64,000 bases of DNA from Candidatus Omnitrophota bacterium (lineage in GTDB: Bacteria; Omnitrophota; Gorgyraeia; Duberdicusellales; 4484-171), in assembly GCA_041652815.1 (NCBI GenBank), contig JBAZGN010000002.1, forward strand, positions 8,209 to 72,208. Direction: 5' to 3'. Below, in pieces: positions 6,001 through 63,600 of this stretch (the first letter of the stretch is position 1; each line of letters opens with the position of its first letter). A model generated the notes under the pieces. The model did not search any database. It saw only the letters and a program-made list of their open reading frames with translations, and was not told where the DNA came from. The position numbers were made by a program, and so were the translations under genes.

Positions 6001-9000
6001 ATTAGAGTTAATTCCAACTTACCAGTAAATTCAGCAAGATACTACAATAAAACTAAAAACGAAGTAGAAATACTTTTTAATGACAAATTTGCTCTTGAAC
6101 TTATAGGTGCATATGATACTTATAGAGAAGCAGTTATCACCATTTTTGGTGAACGTCTTTTCCATGAGCTCTGCCATACCAATAATGGCGATATAAGAGT
6201 AGCTACGGTTAACGAAGCCCGCCGCATAGAGCGCGACTATCAATTGCATAAATTGATTGTAACGAACAAAAGACAAGAAGACGTTGACCTTTTCTATAGA
6301 GAATACCACCCGTCATGTCGCTCCGGTTATTACTTCAAATTTTTAGAAGAGCTCGAAGGCCTTGATGCGCAGCAAAGGAAAATTGCGATTTTAAACTATC
6401 TTTATGCCAATTATCCCGTAGATACAGCCGCCAACCTTTCTATTATTTTAGGAAGAATAGATCTTTCCAAATATGATACAAAAGCCAAATTTGCCATCTA
6501 TTCTGGCCCTCCGGGAGGCGGCAAGGGAGCAGTATCCGAAGAATTTAATAAACTTTTTGGACGTCATATACAGAAATTTATTCTTTTCCATACCAGAGGA
6601 ATACGGCCGGGAGAACGTCAAGATGAAAACTATCATTTCCGCACGGAAGAACATTTAAGGAAATTAAAACAAGAAGGGAAAATACTCACTACTTTGATTA
6701 ACAACCAATTGCAGGGTTTAGCTGTAGAAAGTTTTACCGATACTTATGCCGATCCAGTAACTAACGAAGAAAGAACAACTGAAATTAATGGTCTCGATTC
6801 TGTTTTTAACGGATCACGAATAGTCATCCTTGAATGTGGGCTTTCCTGGTTTGAAATATTAAAAGAAAAATATCCCGATCTTTATGCAATTTTTATTTCG
6901 CCGTTCAATGATAAATATTTAAGCGAAAAATCACATAATCCTGATGCCGCTTTTGAGGCAATCGTAGGCAAGGAAATTGCTTTAAGAATACATGACCGAG
7001 AATGTAAAAATGCCAAAAAAGCCGCTGCCAAGTTTTCAGAAGAGAAAAAATTCTACATCCCTACTTCACAAGGAGAATATGTCAACCGTATCAACGAGGC
7101 GGTAACACAGGTCAAAAGAAGGCATGAATACAGAGTGAATTTAGTCAATGAATGGGTGCCGGAAGATCGTTATGAAGCAGCAATAGGTATATTAACCGAA
7201 CAATTCGCGCAAGCCATCTTCTCAAACGTGCTTACCGCAATGGAGGTTGAGTTTAATGCTGCTGATTCTGCTGAACAGCTTTCTACACGTTTAGGTACCG
7301 TTGATATAAAAGCCAAAGAAAGCCAGGCAAAATTTGTCATCTACTCCGGACCTCCGGGAGGAGGAAAAGGTGCCGTTTGGGATAAGTTCAAGAAAAGATT
7401 CGGCGAATCCAATAATAGTTACGGTGAAAATTTGCTCAATAAATTCCGTCTTTTTCATACCAGGAGCATACGACCCGGCGAAGTCCAAGATGTTGATTAC
7501 CACTTTAGAGATGCAGCGCATTTAAATAAATTACGACAAGAAGGGAAAATCATTACCGTTTTGATTAATGACCAACTACAAGGTTTGCCTTTGGTTAATT
7601 TCCACGATACCTACAAGTATCCGGATCCGGATGATCCTACGACAATTCATGAGGGCGAGTGCGATGTTGTCGGCCTTGACTCGGTATTCAAAGGTGGGCA
7701 GATAGTTCTCTTGGAAGGAGGCCTAGGCTGGTTTGAACAGTTACAACAGATGTGCGGTAAGGATATTTTTAGTATCTTTATATCACCTTTTAGCGATGGC
7801 TATTTAGAGGCGAAATCCCATGATCCAGAGGCAATGCTTGAAGCGATTGTCGGCAAGGAAATTGCATTACGTATCCATGCCAGGGAAGTAAAAGGCGCCG
7901 CATTACAAAAAGCAAATAATGAAGAAAAATTTCAACAAGGAAAAACAGATGAGATTAAACACTGGTTTCCGACGAAACACGAGGAATTTGTCAACAGGGT
8001 CAATGAGGCCGTTATCCAAATAAGAAGAAGGCATGAATACACAAAGGTATTAACCAATGAATGGGCTAACAGTCAGCAAGAATATCAACGTATCATAAGA
8101 AAGCTTACCGAAGAATTTTCACAAGCTATTTTTGGAAATCTTTATAATAACCTCAACGAAGGTTATGTTAAGGCATTCGGCGGAGTAAGCTCTCCTATTT
8201 CAGAAGAATCTTCTCCAAGCGCAAACTTTATTTCCCCCTTCTCTCCCCATAACATCGCGACTCTCATACGCTATGCAGATTTAGAAAATGGTTTCAATGA
8301 TACATATGAATGCAGTCTTGATTTGGAGAAAAAACCATTGAAGAGATTCAGAGCAATAGGCAATAAAGCTTATGATTTAGCAATGGTTTTAAACGAAGCA
8401 TTAATAGTAGTTGAAGAAATTATCTCAAAAGGCGCCGATACAGAACTTACGCGTTATTTCCAGACCAAGCTTAATATGTATTATAACCGTGGACCCCCTA
8501 TTAAGATAAGGCTCAATTCCAAATTAACAGTTAACGCCGCAAGATATTATAACAGGGTTACTAATACGGTAGAGATTATTTTAAATGAACGTTTTGCCTT
8601 GACTCTACTTGCTGCCCGTACGACTTTCCCAGAAGCTATACCAGTTATCTTTGGTGAACGCCTTTTCCATGAGCTCTGCCACACTAATAACGATGATATT
8701 AGGCTTGCCGTAGTCCATGAAGCTCACCGTATCGAAAGAGATCTTCAACTCCATCAATTAGTTGTCGCCAGCGGAAAACAAGCATTTATAGATGATTACT
8801 ACCAACAATTACATCCTGTATGGCGCTCGGGCTATTACTTTAGGTTTCTTGGTAAACTAGGTAAACTTGAAGATAAAGTTCAACGCGGGAAAGCCATAGA
8901 TGCTTATTTAAAGCGTGAATATCCCGTTATTACAGCTTCTAATCTTTCCATAACTTTAGGAAGGATAGAGCTGGGCCAGCATAACACTTCTGCCAAATTT

Positions 9001-12000
9001 GCCATCTACTCCGGGCCTCCAGGAGGAGGAAAAGGCGCTGTCTGGGAGAGATTCTCCAGTCTATTTAGCCATCAAATCGAGCGTTTTATATTATTCCATA
9101 CCCGTTCAATGCGCAGCGGAGAAGTGCAGGATGAAACTTACCATTATAGAAGCGAGGAGCATTTAAAGGCACTGGAAGCAGACGATAAAATTATAACTAC
9201 AAAAATCAACAACCAATTACAAGGTTTAGCCATAGAGACATTTACAGATACCTATATTGACCCTGAAACAAAAGAAGAAAGAACAACAACGGTAGTCGGT
9301 CTTGATACGGTATTTAACGGAGAGAAGGTAGTTGTTCTTGAATGCGGATTAGCCTGGTTTGAAGTTCTAAGCGGTAAATATCCTGACCTTTATTCTATAT
9401 TTATCTCACCATTTTCCGCTGAATATCTTGAAAAGAGTTCACATGACCCCCAAGCGGCATTTGAAGCAATCATCGGTAAAGAGATTGCTTTGAGAATTCA
9501 TAGCAGAGAATGTAAGAATGCTAAAGCAGCCGCAGACAAATTTAAAACGGATCCCCAAGCAAAACTCTACACCCCCACTCCCCAAGCAGAATATATCGAT
9601 AGAATTAAAGAAGCAGTAGAACAGGTAAGAAGGCGGCATGAATATAAACTTGTTTTAGTCAATGAATGGGTACCGGAAGATCAGTTTGAAGAAGCTATTT
9701 TAAAGCTGACCGAAGAATTTGCCAAAGGTATCTTCTCCAACCTCTTAAGAGCGTTAGAGATGCCTTTTGACGATAATGCTTCAGCAGACCAATTAGCAAT
9801 GATTCTGTCGGCAGCAGACCTTAAAACAAAATCAACTTCTGCCAAATTTGCCATATACTCCGGGCCTCCAGGAGGAGGAAAAGGCGCTGTCTGGGAGAGA
9901 TTTATCGAACATTATAGTAATGTTTATAATATCTATGGGGAGCCATTAATTGCTAGATTTAGGCTTTTCCATACCCGGGCAAAAAGGCCAGGAGAAACAC
10001 AGAATGAACATTATTACTATAGAAACGGTATTCATCTCAACAAGCTAAGAATTGAAGGTAAAATTATCACTACCTTGATTAATAATCAGCTTCAAGGATT
10101 GGCTTTAACCAGCTTCGCCGATACTTATACTGATCCCGAGACCAATCAGCAGGAACAATTTGATGTTGTCGGCCTTGACTCGGTATTCAAAGGTGGGCAG
10201 ATAGTTCTCTTGGAAGGAGGCCTAGGCTGGTTTGAACAGTTACAACAGATGTACGGTAAGGATATTTTTAGTATCTTTATATCACCCTTTAGCGATGGCT
10301 ATATTGACAGGCAGTCCAATAACCCGCAATCAGCCTTCAAAGCCATAGTAGGCAAGGAAATTGCCTTGAGAATCCATGCCCGTGAATGCAAAGATGCCAA
10401 AAAGAGAAAAGAGAATGCTGAAGTAGATAAAGAGCAGGGCAATCGTGAAGCTATAAGACTTTTCTCCCCTACGCCACAGCAGGAATTTATCAACCGGATA
10501 GAAGAAGCAGTAGAGCAAGTCGCAAGAAGAGGAGAATATAGTGATATCTTAGTAAATACTTGGGTGCATAACGAAGAAGAATTCCGTCAAGCAGTAAGGG
10601 AACTTACTGAAACATTATCTGTAAATGTCTTCTCCCATCTTTTTAATGAACTGAGAGAAGGTTATGTCAAGGCATTTGGGGGAGCGAGTTCGGCGGTGGC
10701 AACCGCGCAGCATATTATCGTAAACAGGATACTTTTCCAGAGACGGCACGATAGGGCTGAAGTGCTTGTGCATCAAGGCATAAACCCTTCTACTATAGAA
10801 AATATAGCGGGAGGCGCTATTGATTTATTATCTGAAGACGGTTTTACTAGAGCAGTTTTGACTGCAATGGGTGTTGTTGATTTTGACTCTCTTGATAAAA
10901 ATAACGAAGACATAAGCGCAATCACTATGCTTGAATCGTATCGAGATATAAATGATAGCATCGCGGCTGGCACAGTAAGCCTATTCGCATTCAGGGCAGA
11001 TATGCAGCGAGAAATCATTGATCGCTTGATCAATGATTTCAAAATGGTGGGATATAGTGGCGAATATAATGAAGCATACGTTGATGTGTATGACAACCAT
11101 GCAAGAACAACGGGCGTGGTTATGCCACGTGCGCAAGTTCATATGGATGGAGATTTGCACGCGGATGTATATGTGTTTGTGTTTAATGACGACGGGAATA
11201 TTTTGATGCAGACACGTTCTGCCCAAAAGGAGATTTATCCTTTAAAAAGAGAGGCGTCAGTGAGCGGACATAGAAGAGCTGGAGAAGACGCAAAAACAAC
11301 AGCTGTACGCTTATTAAAAAAAGAAATTGGTTTGGAAGCGCGACTGGACAACCTTGTCCAGCTTGGTACAGAAAACAGGTTAAGACGCACGGAGGATTTT
11401 AACAATAACCTTAAAGAAAGGCTTTTTACAACAGTATTTGCCTATGTTATCTCTATCAATGACACTATTACTTTTAATCCCCAGGAAGTTAAAAGTATTG
11501 AGTTTGTTAACGCGGACAAGGAATTGCGCGAGCTAAAGGCAAACAGCGATAATTACGCAAGCATAAAATACGTTTTGTCTGATAGGGAAGTAATAGATGA
11601 AATAAGAAGAATAGGTTCTGAAATCAGTGAGTATAGAATTTCCGTAGGCCAAAGAAGCAAAGACAATGAAATACTTTTTAGAATAAAAAATGTTTTTTCT
11701 ACAGATAGAATAAAAAGTGCCGCTTTCGTCACACCGGAAGCAATACCTTTTGCCAAAACCGGCGGACTAGGGGATGTCTCCGGTGAACTGCCTCAAGCTG
11801 TAGCAGAGCTTGGCATAGCAACTTATATATTTACTTTAGGTTACAACGCAATCTTTCAGAAGTATGACCTTGTCGACACCGGCATAACAATAGAAGTTGT
11901 TATTGACGGCAAGCAGGTACCGGTAAAAATTTGGACAAAACATGAGCGCAATGTTACTTACTTCTTTTTATCAGCACAAGATTATGCCAAGGTACCTTAT

Positions 12001-13146
12001 GCCGGAGATAAATTGCATCTAACATTACTTTTATCCGAAGGAACATTAAAAGCAATTGAGCAGCTTGTTGCCAGGGGTATAATTGTCAACCCGCAAATTA
12101 TACACGCTAACGATTGGCAAACAGCCTTAGTTCCAGTATTTATAAAAACAAAATACAACACGCATCCGCTTTTTACTCATACAGCGACATTATTTACAAT
12201 ACACAATCAAAAGTATAGGGCTGATTGGATCCCGGTACAAAGATTTCCAGAATTAGGTATAGGCTGGGAGCATTGGTTTGGTTTGCAACAGCCGGAAGCC
12301 CCGCAGTATTTTAGTCTTATGCGAGGCGGTATATTCCACGCTGACAAATTGAACGCTGTTTCACCTGCCAATAGAGAGGAGTTATTAACCGTTAAATACG
12401 GAGAAACATTGGTCGATTTATTTCAGGCAAGGGCGCTTGATATGGTGGGTATCATGAACGGTGTTGACTATGACGTTTGGAATCCGGCAAATATTGAAGA
12501 CAAGCCCATAGAGAAAGCTTTATTGCAGGCAAATTTAGGCTTTGAGGTAAATCCAAATATTCCGTTTATCGGTATGGTAGCAAGGATTGCCGCGCAAAAA
12601 GCCGTAGATAAAGTAGTTGCTGTTATTGGAAGATTATTAATGGAAACTAATGGTCAGCTGCAATTTGTTTTTCTCGGTAAAGGTAATCCTCAGGATCCTT
12701 ATAATAGCAAGACAATGAGCATGATGCAGAAATTAGCTTCGAATTCCCGCTGGGCGAAGAATATCAAATTTATGCATCAGTATACAACCGATGAGCAGAT
12801 AAAAGTTTTTAGAGGGATTGACATGTTTCTATATCCTTCTGAGTATGAACCGTGCGGTACCAAACCGATAGTCGCTCTTATCAATGCTGTGCCTTGTGTA
12901 GTTCGAAAAACAGGAGGTTTGGCTGATAACGTACAGGAATATAACAAATTAACTGGAGAGGGAAATGGTTTCATTTTTGAAGAAAATGCAGGCCCGGTTT
13001 TTTATGCTGCTTTAAAGAGGGCGCTTAAAACATTCAGTGATAAAACACATTGGCCTAGAGTCGTCATCAATGCACAGAGTAAAGATAGGAGTTGGACACT
13101 ACCGGCAATGGAATATATAGAATTGTATAAAGCCGCTATTTTTAAA
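1..13146 (+). CDS. Giant multidomain protein, part 1. It is 5'-partial: open from the window start in frame 1 and ending at TAA 13144-13146. Contents: a polytopic membrane region, HExxH modules, four guanylate-kinase-like domains, a Nudix/IDI-like domain and a glycogen-synthase-like domain.
   Basis: Manual frame-1 translation from nt 1 found no stop until TAA at 13144-13146 (...EYIELYKAAIF*). Every 60-nt line starts a codon, and I checked frame alignment at many line starts. The domain motifs are listed in the features below. Confidence 0.85.
706..5013 (+). other. Polytopic membrane region. It contains at least 12 hydrophobic helix-length segments, with an embedded soluble stretch at about 1320-3080.
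   Basis: Translated hydrophobic runs include GFVLSAIALYFVPIASFILKAFGVISIPVNPWVIGLAIAMVSLATILYAVGLL, FYGTVIFGICLYYGWGVIPVFGWVMGGLLITLI, WGLVLAVILLFAPAHPYAVIAQFFFYIFPFAFIFGPFL and VFGQLILLTATIAASFAALYTAIKVLMISVVTLAVLSLIVYPVLVY. Confidence 0.6.
4654..4668 (+). other. HExxH motif (HELFH), a candidate zinc-metallopeptidase-like site inside the membrane region.
   Basis: cat gaa tta ttc cat, in frame. The context is VIFEGHELFHLLNPDFSEE. Confidence 0.3.
5542..6460 (+). other. HExxH-containing domain of repeat unit 1 (HELCH at 6163-6177). It is a paralog of 8245-8980.
   Basis: ISNLIRYSDLEEAFTNEYECVLDLE...IFGERLFHELCHTNNGDIRVATVNEARRIERDYQLH. The HExxH motif is in frame. Confidence 0.4.
6475..7290 (+). 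other. Guanylate-kinase-like domain 1, with a variant P-loop GPPGGGKGA.
   Basis: KFAIYSGPPGGGKGAV (P-loop at 6505-6528), then LFHTRGIRPGERQDENYHF, which resembles the guanylate kinase TTRxPRxGExDGxDYxF motif, and AIFISPFNDKYL. Confidence 0.55.
7321..8160 (+). other. Guanylate-kinase-like domain 2.
   Basis: KFVIYSGPPGGGKGAVW (7348-7371), LFHTRSIRPGEVQDVDYHF and IFISPFSDGYLEAKSH. Confidence 0.55.
7663..7803 (+). repeat. A 141-bp near-identical tract shared between otherwise divergent guanylate-kinase-like paralogs. It looks like a gene-conversion tract.
   Basis: gatgttgtcggccttgactcggtattcaaaggtgggcagatagttctcttggaaggaggcctaggctggtttgaacagttacaacagatgtgcggtaaggatatttttagtatctttatatcaccttttagcgatggctat matches 10162-10303 (and 15118-15259) with 2 mismatches. 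Confidence 0.85.
8245..8980 (+). other. HExxH-containing domain of repeat unit 2 (HELCH at 8668-8682).
   Basis: IATLIRYADLENGFNDTYECSLDLE...IFGERLFHELCHTNNDDIRLAVVHEAHRIERDLQLH. Confidence 0.4.
8986..9810 (+). other. Guanylate-kinase-like domain 3.
   Basis: KFAIYSGPPGGGKGAVWERF (P-loop at 9013-9036) and LFHTRSMRSGEVQDETYHY. Confidence 0.55.
9835..10695 (+). other. Guanylate-kinase-like domain 4.
   Basis: KFAIYSGPPGGGKGAVWERFIEH (9862-9885) and LFHTRAKRPGETQNEHYYY. Confidence 0.55.
11080..11490 (+). other. Nudix-fold domain resembling type-1 isopentenyl-diphosphate isomerase (IDI).
   Basis: GDLHADVYVFVFNDDGNILMQTRSAQKEIYPLKREASVSGH resembles the IDI-1 pattern LHRAFSVFLFN..G.LLLQ.R...K.TFPG...CSHP. 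A degenerate Nudix box follows: GHRRAGEDAKTTAVRLLKKEIGL. Confidence 0.55.
11716..13143 (+). other. Glycogen/starch synthase-like glycosyltransferase domain (GT5, GlgA-like). It is the last domain before the TAA.
   Basis: AAFVTPEAIPFAKTGGLGDVSGELP carries the KTGGL motif (11755-11778). The C-terminal FLYPSEYEPCGTKPIVALINAVPCVVRKTGGLADNV resembles the GlgA pattern PSRFEPCGL....G..P.VR.TGGLADTV. Confidence 0.75.
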
Positions 13147-13163
13147 AAAACAGGCAATATTTC

Positions 13164-15658
13164 TTCTTCTCCAAGCGCAAACTTTATTTCCCCCTTCTCT
13201 CCCCATAACATCGCGACTCTCATACGCTATGCAGATTTAGAAAATGGTTTCAATGATACATATGAATGCAGTCTTGATTTGGAGAAAAAACCATTGAAGA
13301 GATTCAGAGCAATAGGCAATAAAGCTTATGATTTAGCAATGGTTTTAAACGAAGCATTAATAGTAGTTGAAGAAATTATCTCAAAAGGCGCCGATACAGA
13401 ACTTACGCGTTATTTCCAGACCAAGCTTAATATGTATTATAACCGTGGACCCCCTATTAAGATAAGGCTCAATTCCAAATTAACAGTTAACGCCGCAAGA
13501 TATTATAACAGGGTTACTAATACGGTAGAGATTATTTTAAATGAACGTTTTGCCTTGACTCTACTTGCTGCCCGTACGACTTTCCCAGAAGCTATACCAG
13601 TTATCTTTGGTGAACGCCTTTTCCATGAGCTCTGCCACACTAATAACGATGATATTAGGCTTGCCGTAGTCCATGAAGCTCACCGTATCGAAAGAGATCT
13701 TCAACTCCATCAATTAGTTGTCGCCAGCGGAAAACAAGCATTTATAGATGATTACTACCAACAATTACATCCTGTATGGCGCTCGGGCTATTACTTTAGG
13801 TTTCTTGGTAAACTAGGTAAACTTGAAGATAAAGTTCAACGCGGGAAAGCCATAGATGCTTATTTAAAGCGTGAATATCCCGTTATTACAGCTTCTAATC
13901 TTTCCATAACTTTAGGAAGGATAGAGCTGGGCCAGCATAACACTTCTGCCAAATTTGCCATCTACTCCGGGCCTCCAGGAGGAGGAAAAGGCGCTGTCTG
14001 GGAGAGATTCTCCAGTCTATTTAGCCATCAAATCGAGCGTTTTATATTATTCCATACCCGTTCAATGCGCAGCGGAGAAGTGCAGGATGAAACTTACCAT
14101 TATAGAAGCGAGGAGCATTTAAAGGCACTGGAAGCAGACGATAAAATTATAACTACAAAAATCAACAACCAATTACAAGGTTTAGCCATAGAGACATTTA
14201 CAGATACCTATATTGACCCTGAAACAAAAGAAGAAAGAACAACAACGGTAGTCGGTCTTGATACGGTATTTAACGGAGAGAAGGTAGTTGTTCTTGAATG
14301 CGGATTAGCCTGGTTTGAAGTTCTAAGCGGTAAATATCCTGACCTTTATTCTATATTTATCTCACCATTTTCCGCTGAATATCTTGAAAAGAGTTCACAT
14401 GACCCCCAAGCGGCATTTGAAGCAATCATCGGTAAAGAGATTGCTTTGAGAATTCATAGCAGAGAATGTAAGAATGCTAAAGCAGCCGCAGACAAATTTA
14501 AAACGGATCCCCAAGCAAAACTCTACACCCCCACTCCCCAAGCAGAATATATCGATAGAATTAAAGAAGCAGTAGAACAGGTAAGAAGGCGGCATGAATA
14601 TAAACTTGTTTTAGTCAATGAATGGGTACCGGAAGATCAGTTTGAAGAAGCTATTTTAAAGCTGACCGAAGAATTTGCCAAAGGTATCTTCTCCAACCTC
14701 TTAAGAGCGTTAGAGATGCCTTTTGACGATAATGCTTCAGCAGACCAATTAGCAATGATTCTGTCGGCAGCAGACCTTAAAACAAAATCAACTTCTGCCA
14801 AATTTGCCATATACTCCGGGCCTCCAGGAGGAGGAAAAGGCGCTGTCTGGGAGAGATTTATCGAACATTATAGTAATGTTTATAATATCTATGGGGAGCC
14901 ATTAATTGCTAGATTTAGGCTTTTCCATACCCGGGCAAAAAGGCCAGGAGAAACACAGAATGAACATTATTACTATAGAAACGGTATTCATCTCAACAAG
15001 CTAAGAATTGAAGGTAAAATTATCACTACCTTGATTAATAATCAGCTTCAAGGATTGGCTTTAACCAGCTTCGCCGATACTTATACTGATCCCGAGACCA
15101 ATCAGCAGGAACAATTTGATGTTGTCGGCCTTGACTCGGTATTCAAAGGTGGGCAGATAGTTCTCTTGGAAGGAGGCCTAGGCTGGTTTGAACAGTTACA
15201 ACAGATGTACGGTAAGGATATTTTTAGTATCTTTATATCACCCTTTAGCGATGGCTATATTGACAGGCAGTCCAATAACCCGCAATCAGCCTTCAAAGCC
15301 ATAGTAGGCAAGGAAATTGCCTTGAGAATCCATGCCCGTGAATGCAAAGATGCCAAAAAGAGAAAAGAGAATGCTGAAGTAGATAAAGAGCAGGGCAATC
15401 GTGAAGCTATAAGACTTTTCTCCCCTACGCCACAGCAGGAATTTATCAACCGGATAGAAGAAGCAGTAGAGCAAGTCGCAAGAAGAGGAGAATATAGTGA
15501 TATCTTAGTAAATACTTGGGTGCATAACGAAGAAGAATTCCGTCAAGCAGTAAGGGAACTTACTGAAACATTATCTGTAAATGTCTTCTCCCATCTTTTT
15601 AATGAACTGAGAGAAGGTTATGTCAAGGCATTTGGGGGAGCGAGTTCGGCGGTGGCAA
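13164..15658 (+). repeat. Segmental duplication, copy A-prime. It contains guanylate-kinase-like domains 5 and 6 (P-loops at about 13969 and 14818) and HELCH at 13624-13638.
   Basis: Identical to 8207-10702. It starts in frame 2 and is restored to frame 1 by a 1-nt shorter run: cttctcccccat here versus cttctctccccat in copy A. The preceding TAA at 13144 is the only in-frame stop in the window. Confidence 0.9.
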
Positions 15659-51600: not shown

Positions 51601-54600
51601 ATTGAGGCTGTGTTAGCTGCCAAGCGCCAGAAGATGCTGAGCTTGCAGCATGAATTGGGTTTGGAAGAAAAAGCTGACGCTATACTTATTGTTTTAGCTG
51701 CGCGTTTAGACGAACAAAAAGGTCTTTCGTTATTAATACCGATTGCGCGCGAAATACTAAATTATAATCCTCGCGCACAGTTAGTTATTGCCGGAAAAGC
51801 CTATGACATTGCGCAGGTTGAACAGCTTAGGGCAATAGCGCGGGAGCCAGATTTTAGAAGCCGTTTTTATGTCGGAGGAGATTATGCTGATAACTATAAA
51901 TTTTTTGCTGCAGCGCAAATAAACTTAGGGCCTAACGCGTATGCGCCGTTTGACCTGGTGGTAAGAGAAGCAGGGCTTTTAGGGGCGGTTTCTGCTGGGC
52001 TTCGTACAACCGGCGGTTTGGCGGTATTTAAACGGTATAATCCGGCAACCTATGACACATCTACAAATGATGCCTACGCTTTTAGCTTTGATGATTACAA
52101 GCCAGAGCCTTTATTAGAAACAATCAAGCTGGCTATCGATACCTATATCAACCGGCCTGCGCACTGGTTTAATTTAGCCAAACAATGGATGCTGGTGGAT
52201 TATTCCTGGGAGATAGCAGCTCGTCAATATGCCGATACCTTTGCAACAGTAATGGATATGCCTATCGGCAACGCCCGGCATATCGTTTTTGTCGCTCCGG
52301 AATTTAATCCAGATGCGGTTTCATCGCCTCTTAACTTCACTCTCGGTAAAGTGGCAGGGTTTACGCATGGTTTAGTCGGTGAATTTGGCGTACCCCTTAA
52401 ACAGCTTGGAGATGCCTTGAGAACTTTGAGGGTTGTTTCGCCAAATGAGGCGATACAGCACTATGAGGAATTTGATATTTGGCATTGGGGCGGGGATGCT
52501 TTTGTTATGTCGGCAATGGTGATTGTGGATAATAAAGCAGGCCAAACATATGAGCGGAAATTTGTTGCGAAAGCAGTATTAAAATGGCCGATAGTAATGG
52601 TTGCAAATGAATGGATGGAAAAATTTTCTTTGTTAAATAAAATGGGTATTCATATTCCAAGAATCTATTCATATTTCAAGGGCACATTTTATCAGCAGTG
52701 GATTCCTTTTAGTGCGGCAGAAGTATTGGAAAAATCGCAACGCCTGGAGAGAAGGCCGTTTATAGCGCAATTAGCACATATAGCTGCAGTGCTAGATATT
52801 TTTGGTTTTAGCCCGCAAGCTTTTATAGCTGATTTACGTAGCAACGGGAAATATTTTTATTATGTTGATGTAGGGGAAGATTTAGGATGTTCTTCGCTTA
52901 CTCCCGAAACAAAGAGCAGAAGACAATTGCTCGAAGTATTCAGCCAGCAGCCAGAATATAATTTTGCCCAAGAAAAATATGAAAGGGCATCCGGAAAAGT
53001 TGCAAAGCATAAAGAGCAATTAGAGTATCAAGGTTTATTAAAGTGGGATACAATCAGAAGCTGTTATACATTTCTTTCTCTCGATAGGTATTTAAGCCAT
53101 ATAGAAGTTAAGGTTAGCGATTTAATTACTGTAGGTGCCGGTAGTTCCTCGCCTTTATCTCTTTCTGGCGTTCGGGCTTCTACGATCTTGCTTAAAGGCG
53201 GAGAAGACGGCGGATTACGAATAAAAGAAAAAATTATTGAGCATTTATTACCCATCTTAAAAGTTGTTCAAGGCGTAGTCGCCGCGGGAAATATCAGCAA
53301 AGCCATCAAAAGATGGACAGATACGGGCTTCAAATATAGATTTGATGCATTGAGTGAAGATGGCAGTTTGCTTAAGCCGGATATCGAGACAGGCAGAGCG
53401 TTGGTAGCGTTGCACGATAGTCAAGGTTTTATGTCGTGGCTGGCGCAGACGAAAAAGGAATACTCCGGAAATTTAGTATTTGAAAGTTTTGTCTTTTGGG
53501 TTAAATATTATACAAAACCTACACAGCAACTATTGTTATTACCATTCGTCGATCTTCAGGAAATATTAGACTATTTAAGGTTAACTGTTGCTCAGGCCAG
53601 GCAATTATTAAAAGGCCAAGACCCCTTTACTGTGCATTGGCAGAATCTCACTAAAGCAATAATAGTCGGCGCAACCGATGCCGCCGTTGCTCATCAAGGG
53701 AGTTTAAGGAGTATCGTAGCTCAAGAATATCGGGAAGGTGGATTACTTTACGATTTCGCCAGGCGAGCTGCAAATTTTGCTACGGCTGATGCGCCTTTAA
53801 CCATTATGTTTAACGGTTTGCATTGCGCGTCTTACAAGGAATTACCTTTAGAGATTGAACTTATGGAGAATGAAGATAGGTGTTCATTCAAGCAAATGCT
53901 AACGAGTTCACCGCTATCTATATTCAGCCAAATTCCGGCTATAATTGTTGCCGGGCCATCTGGCGTAGGAAAGTCTACTTTTATAAACGAGATTTTAGAA
54001 AGTTACCCCCATAGATTTATTATGCCTACTTTAACTACTACCAGAAAGCCAAGAATACCTGAACCCGGCAAGGCAGATGATAAATACAGGCGATGTATAA
54101 GTGTTGAGCAATTTGAACGGGAAATGCCCGGTATGATGTTAGTAAGAGAAAGCCATGGCCGCTCGCATTTTTATGGTTACCGAGAAGAAGAGCTTTTAAG
54201 ATGCCGTGAAAAATTACAGGAGCGTAATGGAGCTTTGATCTTCGATACTACCTCGATAAGAGGGATTAACCTTATTCAGGAAGAATTCCCCAAGAATAAA
54301 GTAATCGCCATAGTCCCAGTTTCGTTCGAGAACCTCGTTACATTGTTAAAGATTCCTTTTGGCGAAGTGGCAATTAAAGGCATCCTTCGCAGGAGAATTG
54401 ATGAAAGAAAGATGGATCCTGAAGAACGAGAGCTGCGCTTGGAAGAGGCTATCAAGGCATTGGGAGAATTTTCGAATATAAAGGAAACATTCCACGCAAT
54501 TATCGTCAACGGCGACATAAAAGAATTAAATTCAAATCATCATTTGTTTAGGCAAGCTGTATTTTCTGCTACCAGTTCACCCATTTGGCTAGATGCTAAA

Positions 54601-57600
54601 GAAGAATTCGATAGGCTTTTATCCGAAAGGCCGGTACAGCTGCAGTTACAAGCTGCTTCATTATTCGATGCTCAGGATTTAAAGGTTGAATTGGTTGCAA
54701 ACGCTAATTTCTTTAGAGTGCGGGGAACAAGAAATAGCTTAAGGGTAAGTTTACGTGAATTAGCCGATACAAAAGAAAGAGAGTTAGTGAGGTTAAGCGA
54801 TTTTATCTTTGCTTTTGCCGAGGCACAATTTATTAGAAGCATTTCAGATTATAATAGTTCAGGAGCTTTGGATATCTACGCAAACTACCATTTCAGCCGT
54901 ATTGTTATAGAAAGTATTGCTATTTTGACTTTGCAGGAATCGGCAAGAGCAGAAGAACTCAATAACTATCTGACAGGAAGGCGTGATTACTATACAAGGG
55001 ATTTTGCCCTGCATAGTGATATGAATATTGAAGAGCGCGTGGCAGATCTTTTCGGCCAAGGGCTTAAAGCCAGAATTCTTAAATGGTTTACCAGGGCAAT
55101 ATATTTCGGGTTAACTGATTTAGCAGATGAGATTTATGCTTGTGCCTTAAAGCACGGCGGATTGCAGTTGGCCGCTCTTAGGAAGGTCGGGAATTTTTAT
55201 GTAAATCAAATCAGGAATATTAACACTAAGGATGAGATTTTAGCCAGGCTTAATACCTTTGATTGGGAAAGTATAGCACGTTTGACAAGCGATTATTTAC
55301 GTTGCGGAGTATTACTTCCGGCTAATGTTACCCCCTATGAAAGAGGCTTGGTAATAGATTTGTTAAATCATCATCCGGCAAAATTCAGATTAGATAAATG
55401 GGGACAGGATTCATCTTTGCAACCTTCTAATACTGCTAATAAAGAAATAGCGCTTAGAATACCTGAAAGCCAAGAAGAGGCTTTAGATGGCTTAGTCGAA
55501 AAAGGAATTGTTGTTTCTCAAGATGGACTTTTTGGTTTAGCCCCTGATTGGCTTGATTTTGTAGTGGCCAACAGTCAGATAGAGGCTTCCAGCCCGGCAC
55601 AGTATATTCATTGGAACCGGCAGCCTAAAGTAGAAGAATACCTAAGAAGACTAGGTGTGCGATATGACAACGACGGAGAATTCCCCGAAGCCACCTTCCC
55701 TTATAGCCACAACATTTTTGAAAAATGGAAGTTGTATAACTTACCGGGTAAATCAATATGGTCTGTGTTGTTTATTTGGGGCGGGGTAATATTAGGCGAT
55801 GCAACTCTTTATCTCGGAGACAAGAATTTGTCAATATCCACGTGCGAGCTTAAGCCTTTTTATGGCGGAATAGGAATCAGAACGGAAATGACAGCACGAG
55901 TATATTTACGGGGTATGCAGATTAGCCGGTTGCTTGGATTTCCTGCAATTGAAGAACTGCACAGATATTATACTTCCGCAGTAGATTTATCAGCGATGGA
56001 ACTGGAGCGGCATTTGATAGAAATGCTCAATAAATTCGGATTTAAAAGATGCCGTCATTTTGACTATATTAACCGAATGGGAAGGGGTTGTATGAAAGTT
56101 ACGCCGCAAGAATTTATGTTTAATGTTGCGCGCCGCGGACGTGATTTATTCTATGAATACAAAGCTAAAAAGGCCCAAGCGCAAATCGCTTGGAATGAAT
56201 TTAATTGGCAGAAAGCAGATGAAATTAAGAAGGCAAACGACACAATTGCCCTTAGGCTGATAACCAATCGTCTCGAAAGAAGAGGCTTTAAGCCCAATGA
56301 TGCCAGTATCGAAGAAGCTTTCAATGATTTTACCCCTTTTACCAGCGCAGCCAGCTCACCTATTTATACAGAAATTTTTCTTTTAGAACGATATAAAAAG
56401 ATTGTCGTGGGCACTCAAAACCCCATTCTTATCAACATTGTTGCTATCAATAAAAATGGCAGAGAAGCCGACGTGATTGTTTCAAGGAGCCATGAGAGCG
56501 ATAGGTTAGTTCCTGTTTCTAGATTTAAAGAAACAGTTATTGACCAAACAGAGAAAATTTCCCTGCAATTGATACAGAGCCAAAGACAGCTGTTACCTGT
56601 GCGTCAAGGCTTAACTAGCCGGATGGAAATGAGAAGTGAAAATTTATTACGGGTTATAACGCCTCAGGGGATTGAGGTTAAAGAAGATGACCCTCTTTTG
56701 AAAGAAATTCCAGTAGACGGTGGATTAATTTTAATGCGAAGCAAAGAAGACATTGGAGAAGCAAATATAAAAAGAAGGCAGTTTGCGGTTGGCGGATATA
56801 ATTTTGAAGTCACGGGTATCTGTTCAGAGCCGTATATGCTTTTTGTAAAAGACGGAGAAAGGTTATTAATGTTGCCTAAGGGCGATGTAAGGATAGTTAG
56901 AAAAGGTATTTGGTTTAAGTTTGTCGGTTCAGACAGTGGCCGTCATGAGGATAACCCGCGAATACAAATTTTTGCTCCCGGTATGCCTATCGATAGGCCA
57001 GATATAAAGAGCGGCGCGAAACCCAACCATTCCTCCAGCCCTATTTCGGTGGCAGTCATCGGCGATATCCATTCGAAATTTGGAAACTTAACAAAAATTT
57101 TAGAAGACAAAAATAAAAGAGGTGTCGGGAAAACTATATTTTTAGGCGATTATTTAGATAGAGGAAAAGACAGCCGGGCAACAATGTCTTTGGTAAGGCG
57201 CGAAGCCGATAACGGCGCAGTTATGCTTTGGGGTAATCATGAGTTAATTTCTGTTGAAGCCGCTAAAGGAGACCAGCAATCGTTTACAGATTGGCTTACT
57301 AATGGAGGAATTGCAACTGTAAGGGATGTTACGCAGAAAGATGATTTTACGAACCAATTATCCGATAAGGCAGACAGATATAAAATCTTGCGTGATAGGA
57401 TAAGAAATCCATCCGAATCCGACGAATTTATTGATTTATCTGAAGAGCTAAGGCAGATTCAGGAAGAACTTTTGCAAACTGAGCCATTTTTTATCGAATT
57501 AAATAGTTGGTATATTCAAAACCTGAGGCTTTACCATCATGATGCATTGAGCAATTTCTACATTCATGCAGGCCTACCGCGTTGCCGCTTAGGCCAGCTT

Positions 57601-60600
57601 AGCGTAGGTAATTATAAAGGAAAAGTTGATTTAGAAGCTTTGTCCAAAATGGATGAGGATTTACATAATTTGAAAGCTTTGAATGGTTCGATGGTAAGGG
57701 CTATCGAAGATATCGTGGCAAACAGAGATTGGAAAAATGTTTATACTTTGAGCGAAGAAGAAGAAGAGAATGTTTCCGATAGCCTTTTACATAATTTTAG
57801 TGCAGCAATTATGATTATGGGGCATAACCATGCTCACCCACATCTTTATAGAAGGATAGGCAGAAGAATATTTATTATTAATAATGGTTTGAAAGGCTAT
57901 CTGTTGATATCAGAAGACAGAGGTATTGAGTTAGTTGATCCGGGGAAAGAGGCGCAAGTAATAATGCCGGCAGAGGAATACAGAGAACTTCGTCAACCTC
58001 TCATTGAGGTTTCTTCTCCGGTTGCACAAATTGTTACTGACTTAGCTGGAATTATCAACAATGGAAATACTCGGTTGCAGCAGAGTTTAAAAGAGCGGTT
58101 CAACCTCTTCCGTGGCTGGTGGAGGACCGTTCTCTCTGTTGCAGCCGCTTTACCTATTTATATAAGAAAAGGCGCGTTAAGCAAATTTTTAAAGGAAAAT
58201 TTTGGAACAAGGAGGTTAATATGGTTATCCGTGGCTTTGAAAACCTTACAATTACCAGAATTATCCCCACGAGAAATGGGCTTATTGTTAGGGCAACTTA
58301 TCCGGGATGGGCTTCGCGCTTTACCTTTCTTGTCCAGCATAGCGGAAATATTAAGGGCATCAGCGGGTTTAGATGGCAAAATGTCAGTACCGCAGCCACA
58401 AGAATTATTGCGGCAAAAATTTTCTCCAGTATCAGCAAACAGAGCCGTTGGATTTCTTAGAGGATATGTGGACGAAAGAGCTTCTTCTGCTGGAGGCAAT
58501 CATAGTGAGGACATAAACTTGTTCGGGTTAACGCGTTATCAAAAAGTGTTGCTTGAACATTTAGGTATTTCTTTTAATCGGTTTCCGCCGTATGGTTTAT
58601 GGGGCGAAGAATTAAGTATGACAGATTTAGGTATGCAGTTCCGCGACCGTAGGAATGAGCTTCGTGCCGCAATGCGAATTGTATGGCGCAATAAAATGTT
58701 TGCTCGGCTTGTAAGCTATACTAAGCGTCATTATGGAGAAATTAATATTGTAAATGACGTTAATGAATGCTACGTTGAAGCTTTTGTGAGGCTTTCAAGA
58801 AATGCTACTGCACGGCGAGCAGGAGCACAAGCATTTACCTATCCACAGGCAAGAAAAACTATCATTGAGATATGCCGTCAATTACAAAGCGAGGATAGCC
58901 AAGGCAGTTCTCCTCTTGTCTCCGATGACAATGATCAAGAATTAATTAAAACCTCTTCACCTACTGCAATCGCAAGGTCTTCCGCAATTTTCGAGACAAA
59001 AATTACTAACCCCGTGGAAGATATAACAATGCTATTAGGCCGATATAATACATGCTTGGGTGATGGTAGGGGTATTCTAAGCGATTATGGCAAAAGATTA
59101 TTTGCAACAAAGAAATTTAGTTCTATAGATATAGAAAGTTTGCAAGGAGAAACTTTTACGCGCGCAATTGAAAGGCTGGTCTTACCGCCTGAGCATGGTG
59201 GAATAAATAGGGACGCAAATTTATTCATATCCCCTACAGAATATGTTGCAAGGTCAAATTGTAAATTCATAGGCCGAGGTTTGCAAATTTCACACGACTG
59301 TAATAATCATTGTCTATTCTGTATGTCAGGAGGCAAAAATCAAGAGCAATCGTTATTTTATCCTATAGCAATAGAAAGTTTTTTAAGTTTTGCTCAAGAA
59401 GGAGGACGCAAGGCCATACGTTTTACGGTTGTGCCATTCTACTCAAGAACCGACGGTGACGACCTCTCTACTAAAGATGACATTTGTGGTGCAGATATAT
59501 CTGACATTATTTTATTCAATCAATGGAGTTTTAATACATTTTGGCCAGAGGAAAAAGGCATGGCAGATGTACGTAGTGCCGGTTATTCTCCTTTCCATAG
59601 AACTGCATTTTGGTCAAAGAGGGCAGTAAAAAGACTACATGATGCCCAGATTGATGGAAGGAGATTTCGGTTCCTAATCTCATTTCATTTATTCAGGCCG
59701 GAAATTTTATGCGCCGTTCTGGGCATGAATAAAGAACGATTACGTTTTATAATCAGCAAATTTAGCCAAATGTACAAGGATGTTATATTGTGCTGGGGTA
59801 AAGACAATCAAGTATTTGTTTTGCCCCGATGGTTATCACCGGAAGATATTTCTGATCGAAGTTTCCCTACAACGCTTAAAGTGATTGATGGGCTGCAAAG
59901 GAGAATGCTGGAAGATTTATTGGCCGATCACGAAATAAAAAGAAGGATTGTGATAGTGGATGGTGATATTTCATGGAAATACCCATATGCGCGTAGTGTG
60001 TTAGAAAGAATCGTTAAACAAGAAAAGGCGCAATCGGATATCTTTAGCAGGGCTAAAGATATGCTTGTAAAAGAAAGTAACGGCGCCGTTTCTTCGCCTT
60101 TGGCAGGTAGAGAAAGATTTACGACCGTAATTTCCGATATCGGCGGCGTGTTAGGCGGATTCGATGGCGATTCTTTTGTAAAACAGGTTTTACCTTATAG
60201 CCGAATGCCGGCGAAAGACATTGTGGAAGCTCTGCGGACATCTAAGGCAAGAGAGCTGTCCGCCTTAGGAATTATTGATGATAGGCAATTTATCAGAATG
60301 ATTTCTGAAGAATTACAGTTAAAAGGCATAAACTATGGCGATTTTTATAGGATTTATAACTCCGGTTTTACAGTAAATGCAGAAATGGTTGGCTTATTGA
60401 ATTTATTGATGGCACAAGAACTAAAAGTGGCAATTCTTTCTAACATAGGCACTATGCACTACCAAGCTGTAAAAGAATTTATGCCGCAACACGGATTGGA
60501 TATCGAGCGCCTTGATGGGTTTTTCGCATCCTGCGAATTAAGGATGAAAAAGCCAGATCCCGCGATATACAAATATGCTTTGGGTAATTTAGGAGTTAAT

Positions 60601-63600
60601 CCGCAGGAAACCATATTTATCGACGACATGCAGGAAAATGTCGAGGCAGCGCGGGAATTAGGCATAATCGCTATTGGGTTTACGCGTATAGAGCTTCTTG
60701 GACAGACATTAATTGAATTGGGTATTTTAAATAGGAGCTCTTCGCCTTCCAGAGCTAATAATAATGGCAGCTTGGGTATTATGTCGACTTCTGTCGGGAA
60801 ATGGATAGGTTATCATAAAAACAGCCCGCCATTTAACACAGCTGAAGAAACCATTTCTTCTTCTCCGGCGAAAAAAGACAGCAAACATTCTTTTTCTTTG
60901 GCTTTTTCACGCATCCGCAACAGGTTTAGCCGTTTGCCCAGGAACAAACAGCTAAACATATTGGTAGATGCTATTTCTACCGCAGCTTACGTATTTATCA
61001 GCGTAATTTCATTAGGCTTCTTATTCCTTACCACCGGCGTAGCTAATATCATTTTCGGCGTTACCGGAATTCTTTTTGTAGCCCTTAAAGCTACCGCAAC
61101 CTTTATTAAGAAAATCATCAATAGCGGTTTGATTGCCGTTTTAATTTCTGTCGCGCCCTACTTTAAATATTTTGTTATTATAATTATATTTTTTGCCAGA
61201 ACTGTAAACGCTTACGTTAAAAGAATAAATGTGCCGGTTAATCCACGGGCAAATTCACCCGCACTGAAAAATTGCCAAAGTTTAGGCCCTGCATCTTCCC
61301 CAATCGGAAACATCGGCCAAGCCCTAAGAGATGAATTAGTGGTTAACCCGTCTTTACTTTCCTTAAAAGATACCCCTCATTTATTTCTTCAACAGGCTTT
61401 GCAAGCTCAAAATGCCGGCGCAGGGATGATTCATTTTGACCTAATGGATGGGATTTTTGTTGCCGCTAACAACTTAAATATTTTTAGCCCCGAGAAGGTG
61501 TATGAACTGACACAGCGGTTAAGCATTCCTTTGGATGTGCACCTTATGGTTCGTAAGTCAAAACAAGAGCTTGAGTTACTTATCAGCCGCTATCAAGATG
61601 CCGGAGCAGGTATTATTACTGTCCATAGAGAAGTTTTTGAGGGAGAAGACGAGATGATTGATATATTAGAGCATATTCGTAAACAAAATGTAAAAGCCGG
61701 AGTTGCCCTTAATCCTGACCGGCAAGTTTGCGATATCGCTGATGCTTTAGCCTATGCCGATATGGTTCTTATTATGTCAGTGTATCCGGGAAAAAGCGGA
61801 CAGGAATTTATTGTAAATGTTTTAAGCAAAGCAGACATTCTACGTAAACATTACGGTTTCAAAGGCGCGATAGAAATTGACGGCGGAATTAAAACGCCGC
61901 AGGCATTTTTCGTTTCTTTATGGGGAGGAGTTAATATTTTTGTTTCCGGAACAGGGGTATTTAATCAAGAGCCCATTCAAGCCAATATTGCTTTATTAAA
62001 ACAGGCTTTCCGCGCCGGCAAAGCAATGCGGTTAGCTAAGGTGGGAAAATCTATAGAGGCCGGAATTGTATCGTCATCTCTTGCTTTCGATGGGAGCAGC
62101 CGTAATGCTTTGGTTTTCGGGCGCAGGCCTGGAGAAAAGTTGATTGTTTTCGGAAGTAAACTCACAACTATTACTATGGTTGGCTATGGATATAGTTTAG
62201 AGGGCAGAGAGCCGGCAAGCGTTGTTATAGTTTCCCGCGATGGAGAAGATGACAGGTTGGTTGGAGTATCTCAACAAAAACCTGTTGTGGATATTGGCGA
62301 GGATATGTCTGTTTTTGTGCCTCAAAAATATCCGCAAAGGCGTATAGGAATTTTGGTTTTACCTTCAGTTAACGTACAGAGAGCAGAGCAATTACCAGAA
62401 GAAAGCCCTTCTCTTAGCGGGATTGTGGTTACTCGTTATATGAATTATTGGGAGAGAAGAGGTTTTGATGTCGGAGAAGTCGCATTTAAACTTGACGGCA
62501 GGGAAACCATAAGAAGGCCTTATCTTGCTTATCTTACGATGATAGAGCCTAAGAAGCGAAGAGAAATTATCCTCATCGAAAATTTTCAGCGTTATGCAGG
62601 AAATAATATTTGGCTTACATTTTTACCTGTTGAAATTGCGCCCGGCCAAAGTAAAAAAACAAAATTTCATATTATAGCGCCGAACAAGTTTGTTGCGAGA
62701 TGGGATTTTAAAGGGCATAGCAGTAAGGTAGGCAATGGAGGAATTCATAGAAATTTTGGCGCAGGTTCTTCGCCGGTTAAAGATGCGCTTAGAACTACCA
62801 GCCCCACTCGTGGTCCGCCGGAATTTAGCTACAAGCTACGAGCTATCCTTCGAGCATACTCAGGACAAGTGAGCTATGAGTTTAATTCTTCTTCGCCAGT
62901 TCAATTAATTAAAGAAAAGCATCAAGCCCAATTTAAAGAAGAGGCTGTAAATTGGCTTATGGAATGGTTTAGGACGGAAGGCGGCGTCGCTGATGTTACA
63001 CGTAATGGCGCTGAAGAAGTATATGACAAGTTTTATATCTGCCCGGCAGGAACTGTAGGCTGGCTTACTAAGCCGTTTGAGGATTTAAGTCCGGAAGAAG
63101 AAGTTGTATTCCTACGAGCGATAATGAGAAGATATGCTCAATACGCCAAGCTTGAGCCTCAAGGAGGAGTATTGAGGTATTTACCCGGAAGCTTAGAGAC
63201 TTATGAAATTGATTTAACTAAAGCAGGCGAAAGCGGGAAATTAATTCTTAAGTTAAGGCCGACCACTAACGCTCTCCCCTTTGCGGTAATGTATGAGTTT
63301 GGCTATAAAGGCGATGAGTATATCATTACTCTTCACCGCGCGCCTTACGGCGTAGAGCGCCATGTGGTTGTAGGCAAAAAATTCTCCCAGAGTACTCCCC
63401 AGGAACTATCGTTGGAACGGACAGAGCTTATTCTACGCCTAACACGGATGTTTGGAAGTGGGTATGAAACCACCTTTAACCATGTGGGATGTGGAGTACC
63501 AGAATTCCATGCCCACTTTTTTAAATTGATAACGCCGTTATGGACAACTTCGACCCATATTGGTATATCAAGCAAATATCTTAAAGGAATTCAAAGATTA

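Follow-up and report, generated by a model that had tools for sequence, protein, structure and literature searches.

A 64,000-nucleotide stretch of contig JBAZGN010000002.1 from a Candidatus Omnitrophota bacterium (here called the window) carries the internal part of what we take to be one of the known giant multi-enzyme genes of this phylum. We judge, with a probability of roughly 0.7, that the encoded polypeptide is a string of enzymes most of which are competent, as opposed to a sponge made of pseudoenzymes. This reading draws on sequence, homology, conservation and predicted fold, from which we infer catalytic activity, substrates and the side of the membrane. A preliminary description of the same DNA had noted substitutions at canonical catalytic positions in several domains and proposed that the megaprotein might serve as a scaffold, a metabolite sponge or a regulator. 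All motif strings quoted there are present in frame 0 of the + strand, including GPSGVGKST at nt 53953. As described below, several lines of evidence bear on what these strings mean.

A single frame of metabolic domains

First, frame 0 of the + strand runs through 21,333 codons without a stop and is open at both ends of the window, whereas none of the other frames stays open for more than 171 codons. The frame is therefore real coding sequence, and the window covers an inner part of a single giant gene whose frame is well above the 10,000 uninterrupted codons that mark the Omnitrophota giants. Second, a Pfam scan of 1,000-residue tiles of this frame returned, in order, guanylate-kinase-like domains, two NUDIX domains, two GT5+GT1 units, PPDK_N with a phosphoenolpyruvate (PEP)-utilizer His domain, HATPase_c and a weak PGM/PMM match, followed by PFK, ROK and PfkB, pyruvate kinase, a second guanylate kinase, a metallophosphoesterase, a HAD hydrolase and ribulose-phosphate 3-epimerase. 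The tiling of many metabolic families (GT5, GT1, PGM, PPDK_N, NUDIX, HAD, ROK and others) along one polypeptide is characteristic of the Omnitrophota giants, which share with the window a Pfam repertoire of GT5/GT1, PGM/PMM, PPDK_N, NUDIX, HATPase_c, GNAT, HAD and ROK as well as the giant uninterrupted frame, clusters of hydrophobic anchors, and homologous modules in metagenome-assembled genomes (MAGs) mostly titled Omnitrophota. Such giants have been described as 'Archaeovorins' (West-Roberts et al., 2023, bioRxiv 10.1101/2023.11.21.568195), and a 'multi-enzyme metabolic cluster' class has been defined among them (bioRxiv 10.64898/2026.06.07.730766). Active sites, pseudoenzymes and guanylate-kinase-like modules did not come up in a text search of the two papers; the tandem guanylate-kinase-like pairs with an HExxH domain before each are described here.

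Third, a hydropathy scan with 19-residue segments located clusters of hydrophobic helices at residues 236-440, 1147-1375, 1629-1672 and 20320-20396 (nt ~706-1320, 3439-4125, 4885-5016 and 60958-61188) and none in the ~18,600 residues between 1672 and 20320, so all of the flagged domains are expected on one side of the membrane. The epimerase domain is located past the last cluster. Fourth, in an alignment-based scan that took one genome per species, the guanylate-kinase-like module was found in 17 loci, 16 of which were stop-free over all of the DNA fetched. Most of these loci come from MAGs titled Omnitrophota, as do the closest relatives of the lineage-specific modules and of the PFK unit; some (L002, L003, L005, L007 and L008) carry Planctomycetales, Planctomycetia or Nitrospirae titles, perhaps a matter of taxonomic labelling. 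Single-sequence scans with the first module (A1) over genome, viral and metagenome contigs gave no match.

Finally, many of the units in the frame keep their catalytic signatures. The pyruvate kinase (E=5e-91) has the full set of catalytic Lys, Glu, Asp, Thr and Ser motifs, with AKIET, MVARGDL, ATQMLDSM and MLSGET aligned to the Staphylococcus aureus and Geobacillus enzymes, and its DLQGPKIRV string (nt 49558, residue 16520) corresponds to L113/Q114/K117/V120, a co-evolved signature of K+-independent pyruvate kinases. The glycogen synthase, epimerase, PfkB, metallophosphoesterase, HAD and PFK units likewise retain the signatures of their families, and a scaffold or sponge composed of dead enzymes is not supported on this point.

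Features of the window, in order of position (nucleotide coordinates within the window)
Feature	Position	Strand	Remarks
Single stop-free reading frame	1..63999	+	internal piece of a giant gene; both ends run off the window
HExxH domain, copy 1 (RLFHELCH), conserved	5539..6420	+	before guanylate-kinase-like pair 1
Guanylate-kinase-like tandem pair 1 (A1 6421-7260, B1 7264-8145)	6421..8145	+	P-loop GPPGGGKGA; AF2 model, Foldseek
HExxH domain, further copies	8230-8931; 13186-13887	+	each before a guanylate-kinase-like pair
Guanylate-kinase-like tandem pair 2 (A2, B2)	8932..10665	+	
Nudix domain 1, isopentenyl-diphosphate-isomerase-like	10984..11613	+	box GHRRAGE-x7-RLLKKEIGL
Glycogen/starch synthase (GT5+GT1) unit 1	11722..13029	+	KTGGL, HANDW, R..QK, EPCG, TGGLAD all present
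Guanylate-kinase-like tandem pair 3	13888..15621	+	exact copy of pair 2; inside the 2,494-nt perfect repeat
Nudix domain 2	15715..16413	+	box GHLGLTE-x7-NETQEEVF
PEP-synthase-like ATP-grasp and swivelling His domain	16984..18387	+	loop RGDDLCHAAIVSREL; no C-terminal PEP/pyruvate domain
Divergent phosphohexomutase-like region	27250..28560	+	TSSHSA, DPDSDR, EESGG loops matched by eye; weak Pfam match
Complete PFK unit	31306..32742	+	GGDCPGLNA, GGDD, LKTVDDD, MGR, VRHN..IRG, ...MGVWWK; colinear with free-standing Omnitrophota PFK genes
ROK-like sugar kinase, then PfkB kinase	42388..44085	+	DLGGT, GNDVSCAG; then GG, DGTGCGD
Pyruvate kinase	49357..50799	+	all catalytic motifs; DLQGPKIRV
Glycogen/starch synthase-like unit 2	51049..51987	+	
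Single guanylate-kinase domain	53938..54351	+	canonical P-loop GPSGVGKST (nt 53953)
Calcineurin-like phosphoesterase	57046..57900	+	GDIH, GDYLDRG, GNHE intact
HAD phosphatase, YihX (glucose-1-phosphatase) type	60124..60678	+	motif I DIGGV, II SN, III KKPD, IV DD
Ribulose-phosphate 3-epimerase	61342..61962	+	H-x-D, HLM, DGG motifs

Two further observations concern parts of the frame outside these units. A repeat of ~60 residues, 87-92% identical, occurs at residues 9819-9881 and 11781-11843 (nt ~29455-29643 and 35341-35529), in regions without a family match. Residues ~6977-7046 (nt ~20929-21138) and 8699-8849 (nt 26095-26547) give weak NTP_transf_2/Polbeta matches, with HATPase_c just below threshold, in otherwise unannotated surroundings.

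Flagged positions in the PFK, HAD and PEP-synthase-like units

The motif GGDCPGLNA at nt 31327 had been singled out as a departure from GGDAPGMNA of 6-phosphofructokinase (PFK), but a solved PFK (PDB 44xa) and free-standing Omnitrophota PFK genes carry exactly this string, which is thus not deviant. The other catalytic elements of PF00365 are also in place: GGD, Asp103, the catalytic Asp127 in T-x-D, MGR and the Arg243 and Arg252 equivalents are found within GGDCPGLNA, GGDD, KTVDDD, MGRNRGW and VRHN..IIRG. GGDD and K-T-x-D are common to the window enzyme and a solved pyrophosphate (PPi)-dependent PFK (9dqm), and the published signature associated with PPi dependence, Asp104 plus Lys124, is present as GGD-D and L-K-T; from these signature residues the unit is predicted to be a PPi-type enzyme.

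A homolog search recovered free-standing Omnitrophota genes of ~475 residues that are annotated as 6-phosphofructokinase, are 58-65% identical to the PFK unit and sit among neighbours of ordinary size. Colinearity extends from ILFGVSGGDCPGLNA (ILFG[IV]SGGDCPGLNA) to MGVWWK and includes the C-terminal VRHN..IIRG, and the free-standing gene at 8001-9431 of loci L019/L020, 65% identical, is colinear end to end with the entire window unit. A whole PFK gene has thus been fused in frame. Both the Pfam and PDB alignments end at MGR, and a truncated PFK was considered on that ground; alignment to the free-standing Omnitrophota enzymes ruled it out. PPi-dependent or 'mixed' PFKs and the free-standing Omnitrophota PFK share with the unit GGDCPGLNA, GGDD, K-T-x-D, MGR and a C-terminal R...R-G, whereas its embedding in a giant frame and its membership of a lineage-specific clade of ~475-residue enzymes set it apart from known PFKs.

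The HAD domain was expected to show DxDGV at motif I and instead has DIGGV (nt 60136), a difference that is real but probably not inactivating. The best solved match of this domain is Escherichia coli YihX (E=4e-16), and DIGGV/SN/KKPD/DD of the window aligns with DLGNV/SN/RKPE/DD of YihX, with Gly two residues after the nucleophile in both. YihX is an active and specific glucose-1-phosphatase, which turns over glucose-1-phosphate ~10 times per second. All of the features that define the YihX/IA-variant-3 type (nucleophile Asp in DxG, Ser/Thr in motif II, Lys in motif III, DD in motif IV) were found, and the TIGR01509 (HAD-IA-v3) score of 54.5 is above the cut-off of 29.4. Judged by these alignments, DIGGV is natural variation. 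The domain shares motif I DxG-x-V and motifs II-IV with the E. coli YihX/HAD4 alpha-D-glucose-1-phosphate phosphatase, and glucose-1-phosphatase is also the top NCBIfam family, but the score is 79 bits against an equivalog cut-off of 295, so glucose-1-phosphate is a candidate substrate. A canonical motif-I string, DCDGV, lies at nt 33553 (residue 11185) in a region without a Pfam match and could mark an unrecognised HAD-like domain or be there by chance.

For the PEP-synthase-like unit, the claim that TSH of the phospho-His loop has changed to LCH held for one residue and not for the other. The unit matches a solved PEP synthase with E=1e-66, contains both the ATP-grasp and the phospho-His domain, and retains the catalytic His. 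Among 120 homologs the triplet reads TCH in 90, TSH in 28 and TAH in 2. Most of them thus have Cys ahead of the phospho-His; the Thr-to-Leu change is genuine and is taken up below. The ATP-grasp and swivelling His domains are shared with PpsA and with two-domain dikinases such as rifampin phosphotransferase; compared with PpsA, the unit has no PEP/pyruvate TIM-barrel domain. LCH occurs five times in the frame, and the notion that all five are PEP-enzyme loops was ruled out: one (nt 18274, residue 6092) lies in the PEP-utilizer His loop, three are HELCH strings of the HExxH domain and one is a chance match. Orthologs of the unit, sought in the fetched loci for conservation of Leu-Cys-His, were not found there, and a literature search for mutagenesis of the regulatory Thr of pyruvate phosphate dikinase yielded nothing usable.

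The PFK motif, HAD motif I and the Cys of the PEP loop had seemed deviant because the motifs expected were those of one subfamily only. Natural variation in active relatives accounts for these three and, in part, for the guanylate-kinase-like P-loop, where it covers the Gly that follows the Lys.

Guanylate-kinase-like modules and HExxH domains

The P-loop GPPGGGKGA occurs six times in frame 0 of the + strand (nt 6505, 7348, 9013, 9862, 13969 and 14818), representing four distinct modules and two exact copies. The string is as first reported, but its Ala does not occupy the Walker-A Ser/Thr position to which it had been assigned. The residue directly after the Walker-A Lys (K+1) is Gly, which is normal given that the solved S. 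aureus guanylate kinase has GPSGVGKGT; Ala is at K+2, a position that varies among Ala, Glu, Thr and Val in the clade. An exhaustive profile search gave 574 relatives of the module, many of them fragments of very long proteins, compared with only 2 matches from a word-indexed homolog search. K+2 is E15/A13/T5 in the 38 closest domains and A22/E14/V5/T4 in 54 P-loops of the 17 loci, where the Lys is kept in 52 of 54, and one ortholog (P0008) has GKGT. GPPGGGK-G-A thus preserves the Lys and glycines of GxxGxGK without a Ser/Thr hydroxyl at K+1 or K+2. Mutation of Thr23 of adenylate kinase 1, the K+2 equivalent, leaves function undestroyed.

Across MAGs, GPPGGGKG is the best-conserved element of the module. 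R59, R62, E65 and Y71 are invariant and K35, T58 and R189 nearly so in a 15-sequence alignment, and R193 and R223 are invariant in a 6-sequence alignment. Aligned to canonical guanylate kinases, these positions are the P-loop Lys, the residues that bind the phosphate of guanosine monophosphate (GMP) and the lid arginines, so that the Arg/Arg/Glu/Tyr phosphate-binding set and the lid are both represented. An AF2 model built from the 15-sequence alignment had a pLDDT of 91.4 (a 6-sequence input gave 48.8 and was unusable) and shows the core, NMP-binding and lid parts of the guanylate-kinase fold; the best 50 Foldseek matches listed were all true guanylate kinases, with TM-scores of 0.62-0.78 on the target. 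Non-synonymous differences of 0.21-0.29 per site compare with saturated synonymous differences of 0.70-0.81. Pfam scores are 24.5-33.7 bits against a cut-off of 25.2, with 12 of 15 clade members matching, and the NCBIfam equivalog score (TIGR03263) is 49.8 bits against 160. The modules therefore share with Gmk (PF00625, TIGR03263) the fold, the glycine-rich P-loop with its Lys, the TRxxRxxE..Y phosphate-binding motif and the lid arginines, but differ in having only 13-18% identity, ~80 extra residues, and Ala, Glu or Val at K+2 where Gmk has Thr. Taken by their sequences, they look like conserved phosphotransferases with an altered acceptor and not like decayed domains.

The guanylate-kinase-like domains of membrane-associated guanylate kinases (MAGUKs) are established pseudoenzymes that have lost the P-loop and bind phosphopeptides. 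The window modules resemble them in placing a guanylate-kinase fold inside a larger multidomain protein, but the P-loop that is gone in MAGUKs is the most conserved element here. The next-nearest relatives of the modules (P0077-P0150) are stand-alone guanylate-kinase-like proteins of ~250 residues with GKGPL, GKSPL or GKTPL loops, which have Pro at K+2; these proteins score below all NCBIfam guanylate-kinase cut-offs, and NCBIfam gave no characterised family for those with GKGPL loops. In the single module with the canonical GPSGVGKST, the segment that binds GMP is less canonical (TTTRKPRIPEPGKADDKY, HFYGY), and the best PDB match of this module is Chlamydomonas FAP42 (PDB 7n6g), a protein of 2,540 residues with several guanylate-kinase domains. 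FAP42 is similar in carrying multiple domains of this type in one large polypeptide, but it is a eukaryotic axonemal protein and matches the nt 53953 module, not the GPPGGGKGA modules.

The HExxH domain that precedes each pair is widespread, with more than 20 copies of the motif RLFHE[LF][GC]H[TSDN]N across the Omnitrophota loci. Since neither Pfam nor NCBIfam has a family that matches it, its assignment as a peptidase comes from the motif, and we regard it as a candidate embedded zinc peptidase. One HExxH domain and the guanylate-kinase-like pair behind it form a 2,494-nt perfect direct repeat (nt 8209-10702 and 13165-15658, 0 mismatches), explained either by duplication in the very recent past or by faulty assembly.

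Competing interpretations and the possibly re-purposed minority

The alternative that survives best, although we consider it doubtful, is that the protein is a polyprotein precursor, cut for example by its own HExxH domains into active enzymes of ordinary size, with fusion serving co-expression and stoichiometry. The recurrence of the RLFHELGH-type domain, ahead of every guanylate-kinase-like pair and across many Omnitrophota loci, the correspondence of the PFK unit to a free-standing gene from end to end, and the post-translational cleavage proposed for such giants by West-Roberts et al. (10.1101/2023.11.21.568195) all fit this idea. Its weak point is the motif-based peptidase assignment, and it is in any case compatible with a chain of competent enzymes and does not exclude one.

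A protein of mostly pseudoenzymes that acts as a scaffold, metabolite sponge or sensor and binds sugar phosphates or nucleotides without turnover appears improbable, and more so than a precursor, but several results count in its favour and weigh against a working enzyme chain. The degenerate RLLKKE box of Nudix domain 1 (nt 11308) stands as first described: two of the three REUXEE glutamates are gone, so that one catalytic Glu is left where GX5EX7REUXEEXGU of Nudix hydrolases has three, and the same degenerate box is conserved in the orthologs from four other giants, which keep three metal-binding His and one Glu. The best solved and NCBIfam match of this domain is type-1 isopentenyl-diphosphate (IPP) isomerase, at 67.7 bits against a cut-off of 127. 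IPP isomerase has a naturally degenerate Nudix box of its own (RRCRYE) and has in common with the domain the metal-binding His, GH and the Glu114 equivalent; nevertheless, Ser replaces the catalytic Cys67 and Leu replaces Glu116, and what is retained of the isomerase site is the three metal His and the Glu114 equivalent. Nudix domain 1 is thus non-canonical and possibly non-catalytic, in keeping with the preliminary description. In Nudix domain 2 the NETQEE box has all three Glu but has lost the Arg and Gly, and its orthologs retain the Glu triad as xETEEEVF, with RExEEE in some.

The PEP-synthase-like unit is the second such case. Its loop reads GDDLCH against GGxT[CS]H, in which GG and Thr are invariant among the 120 homologs, and the Thr-to-Leu and Gly-to-Asp changes beside the phospho-His occur in none of them. 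Pfam finds no PEP/pyruvate-binding domain (PF02896) downstream, whereas almost every one of the 120 homologs listed has it. By these features the unit is truly atypical, and it could phosphorylate an acceptor other than pyruvate. In the guanylate-kinase-like modules, besides the loss of Thr at K+2, the guanine-recognising Glu (of FLE) and GNxYGT are swapped for IIT and QLQGL, so the phosphate acceptor of the clade is probably not GMP; a role in ligand binding without catalysis would also agree with the purifying selection and the conserved binding residues. The ROK-like unit is without the zinc-Cys motif, and none of the domains in the window scores above an NCBIfam equivalog cut-off. Moreover, the 2026 preprint (bioRxiv 10.64898/2026.06.07.730766) argues that many such giants are exported, and outside the cell reactions that depend on ATP, PEP or PPi would be difficult to maintain.

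Set against these points, active or solved relatives show four of the six flagged changes, the guanylate-kinase-like, PFK, HAD, pyruvate kinase, glycogen synthase, PfkB, epimerase and metallophosphoesterase units all have their catalytic Lys, Arg, Asp and His residues, the PFK unit is close in sequence to free-standing genes of the same phylum, and the P-loop lost by MAGUK pseudoenzymes is what the window modules conserve best. The suggestion that several domains may be pseudoenzymes is therefore narrowed to Nudix domain 1 and the atypical PEP-synthase-like unit and probably does not extend to PFK, HAD or most others. An artefact, in the form of a mis-assembled frame or repeats or a decaying pseudogene, is hardly credible: the 2,494-nt repeat could be an assembly duplication and the window sequence had no match in the public collections searched, but the stop-free length far exceeds that of the other frames, non-synonymous differences are far below synonymous ones, and in 16 of 17 independent Omnitrophota loci these modules likewise lie in DNA free of stops along its whole length.

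We therefore favour a membrane-tethered chain of largely competent enzymes. According to this proposal, enzymes of sugar-phosphate, glycogen and PEP/pyruvate metabolism, all complete or nearly so, would be fused in frame along a stretch of ~18,600 residues that is free of transmembrane segments and has hydrophobic helix clusters on either side. Subfamily signatures, namely those of a PPi-type PFK, a YihX-type phosphatase, a TCH-type His loop and a lineage-specific clade with the guanylate-kinase fold, would account for most of the flagged substitutions. The embedded HExxH domains may cut the protein into pieces. A minority of the domains, comprising Nudix domain 1, perhaps the truncated PEP-synthase-like unit, and also the guanylate-kinase-like pairs with their HExxH partner, would have been re-purposed. 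We tentatively entertain, as a possible but not a likely elaboration, that the GPPGGGKG[A/E] tandems, which combine a guanylate-kinase fold with the loss of guanine recognition, make up a new P-loop family of phosphotransferases or of switches gated by nucleotides, and that together with the conserved 'dead' IPP-isomerase-like Nudix domain they would supply metabolite-sensing or self-regulating elements among working enzymes; on that interpretation it is relevant that the modules are found almost only in giant frames, mostly of Omnitrophota MAGs, and in the window are always paired with an HExxH domain in front.

The giant multi-enzyme genes of Omnitrophota rank with the largest genes known. 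With the enzymes predicted to be largely competent and at least one of them, the PFK, being a whole free-standing gene fused in frame, our domain-by-domain comparison points to 'metabolism on a string' or a polyprotein and away from a scaffold for binding. The few truly atypical parts, namely the guanylate-kinase-like clade, Nudix domain 1, the truncated PEP-synthase-like unit and the HExxH domain, are where new biochemistry is most to be expected.

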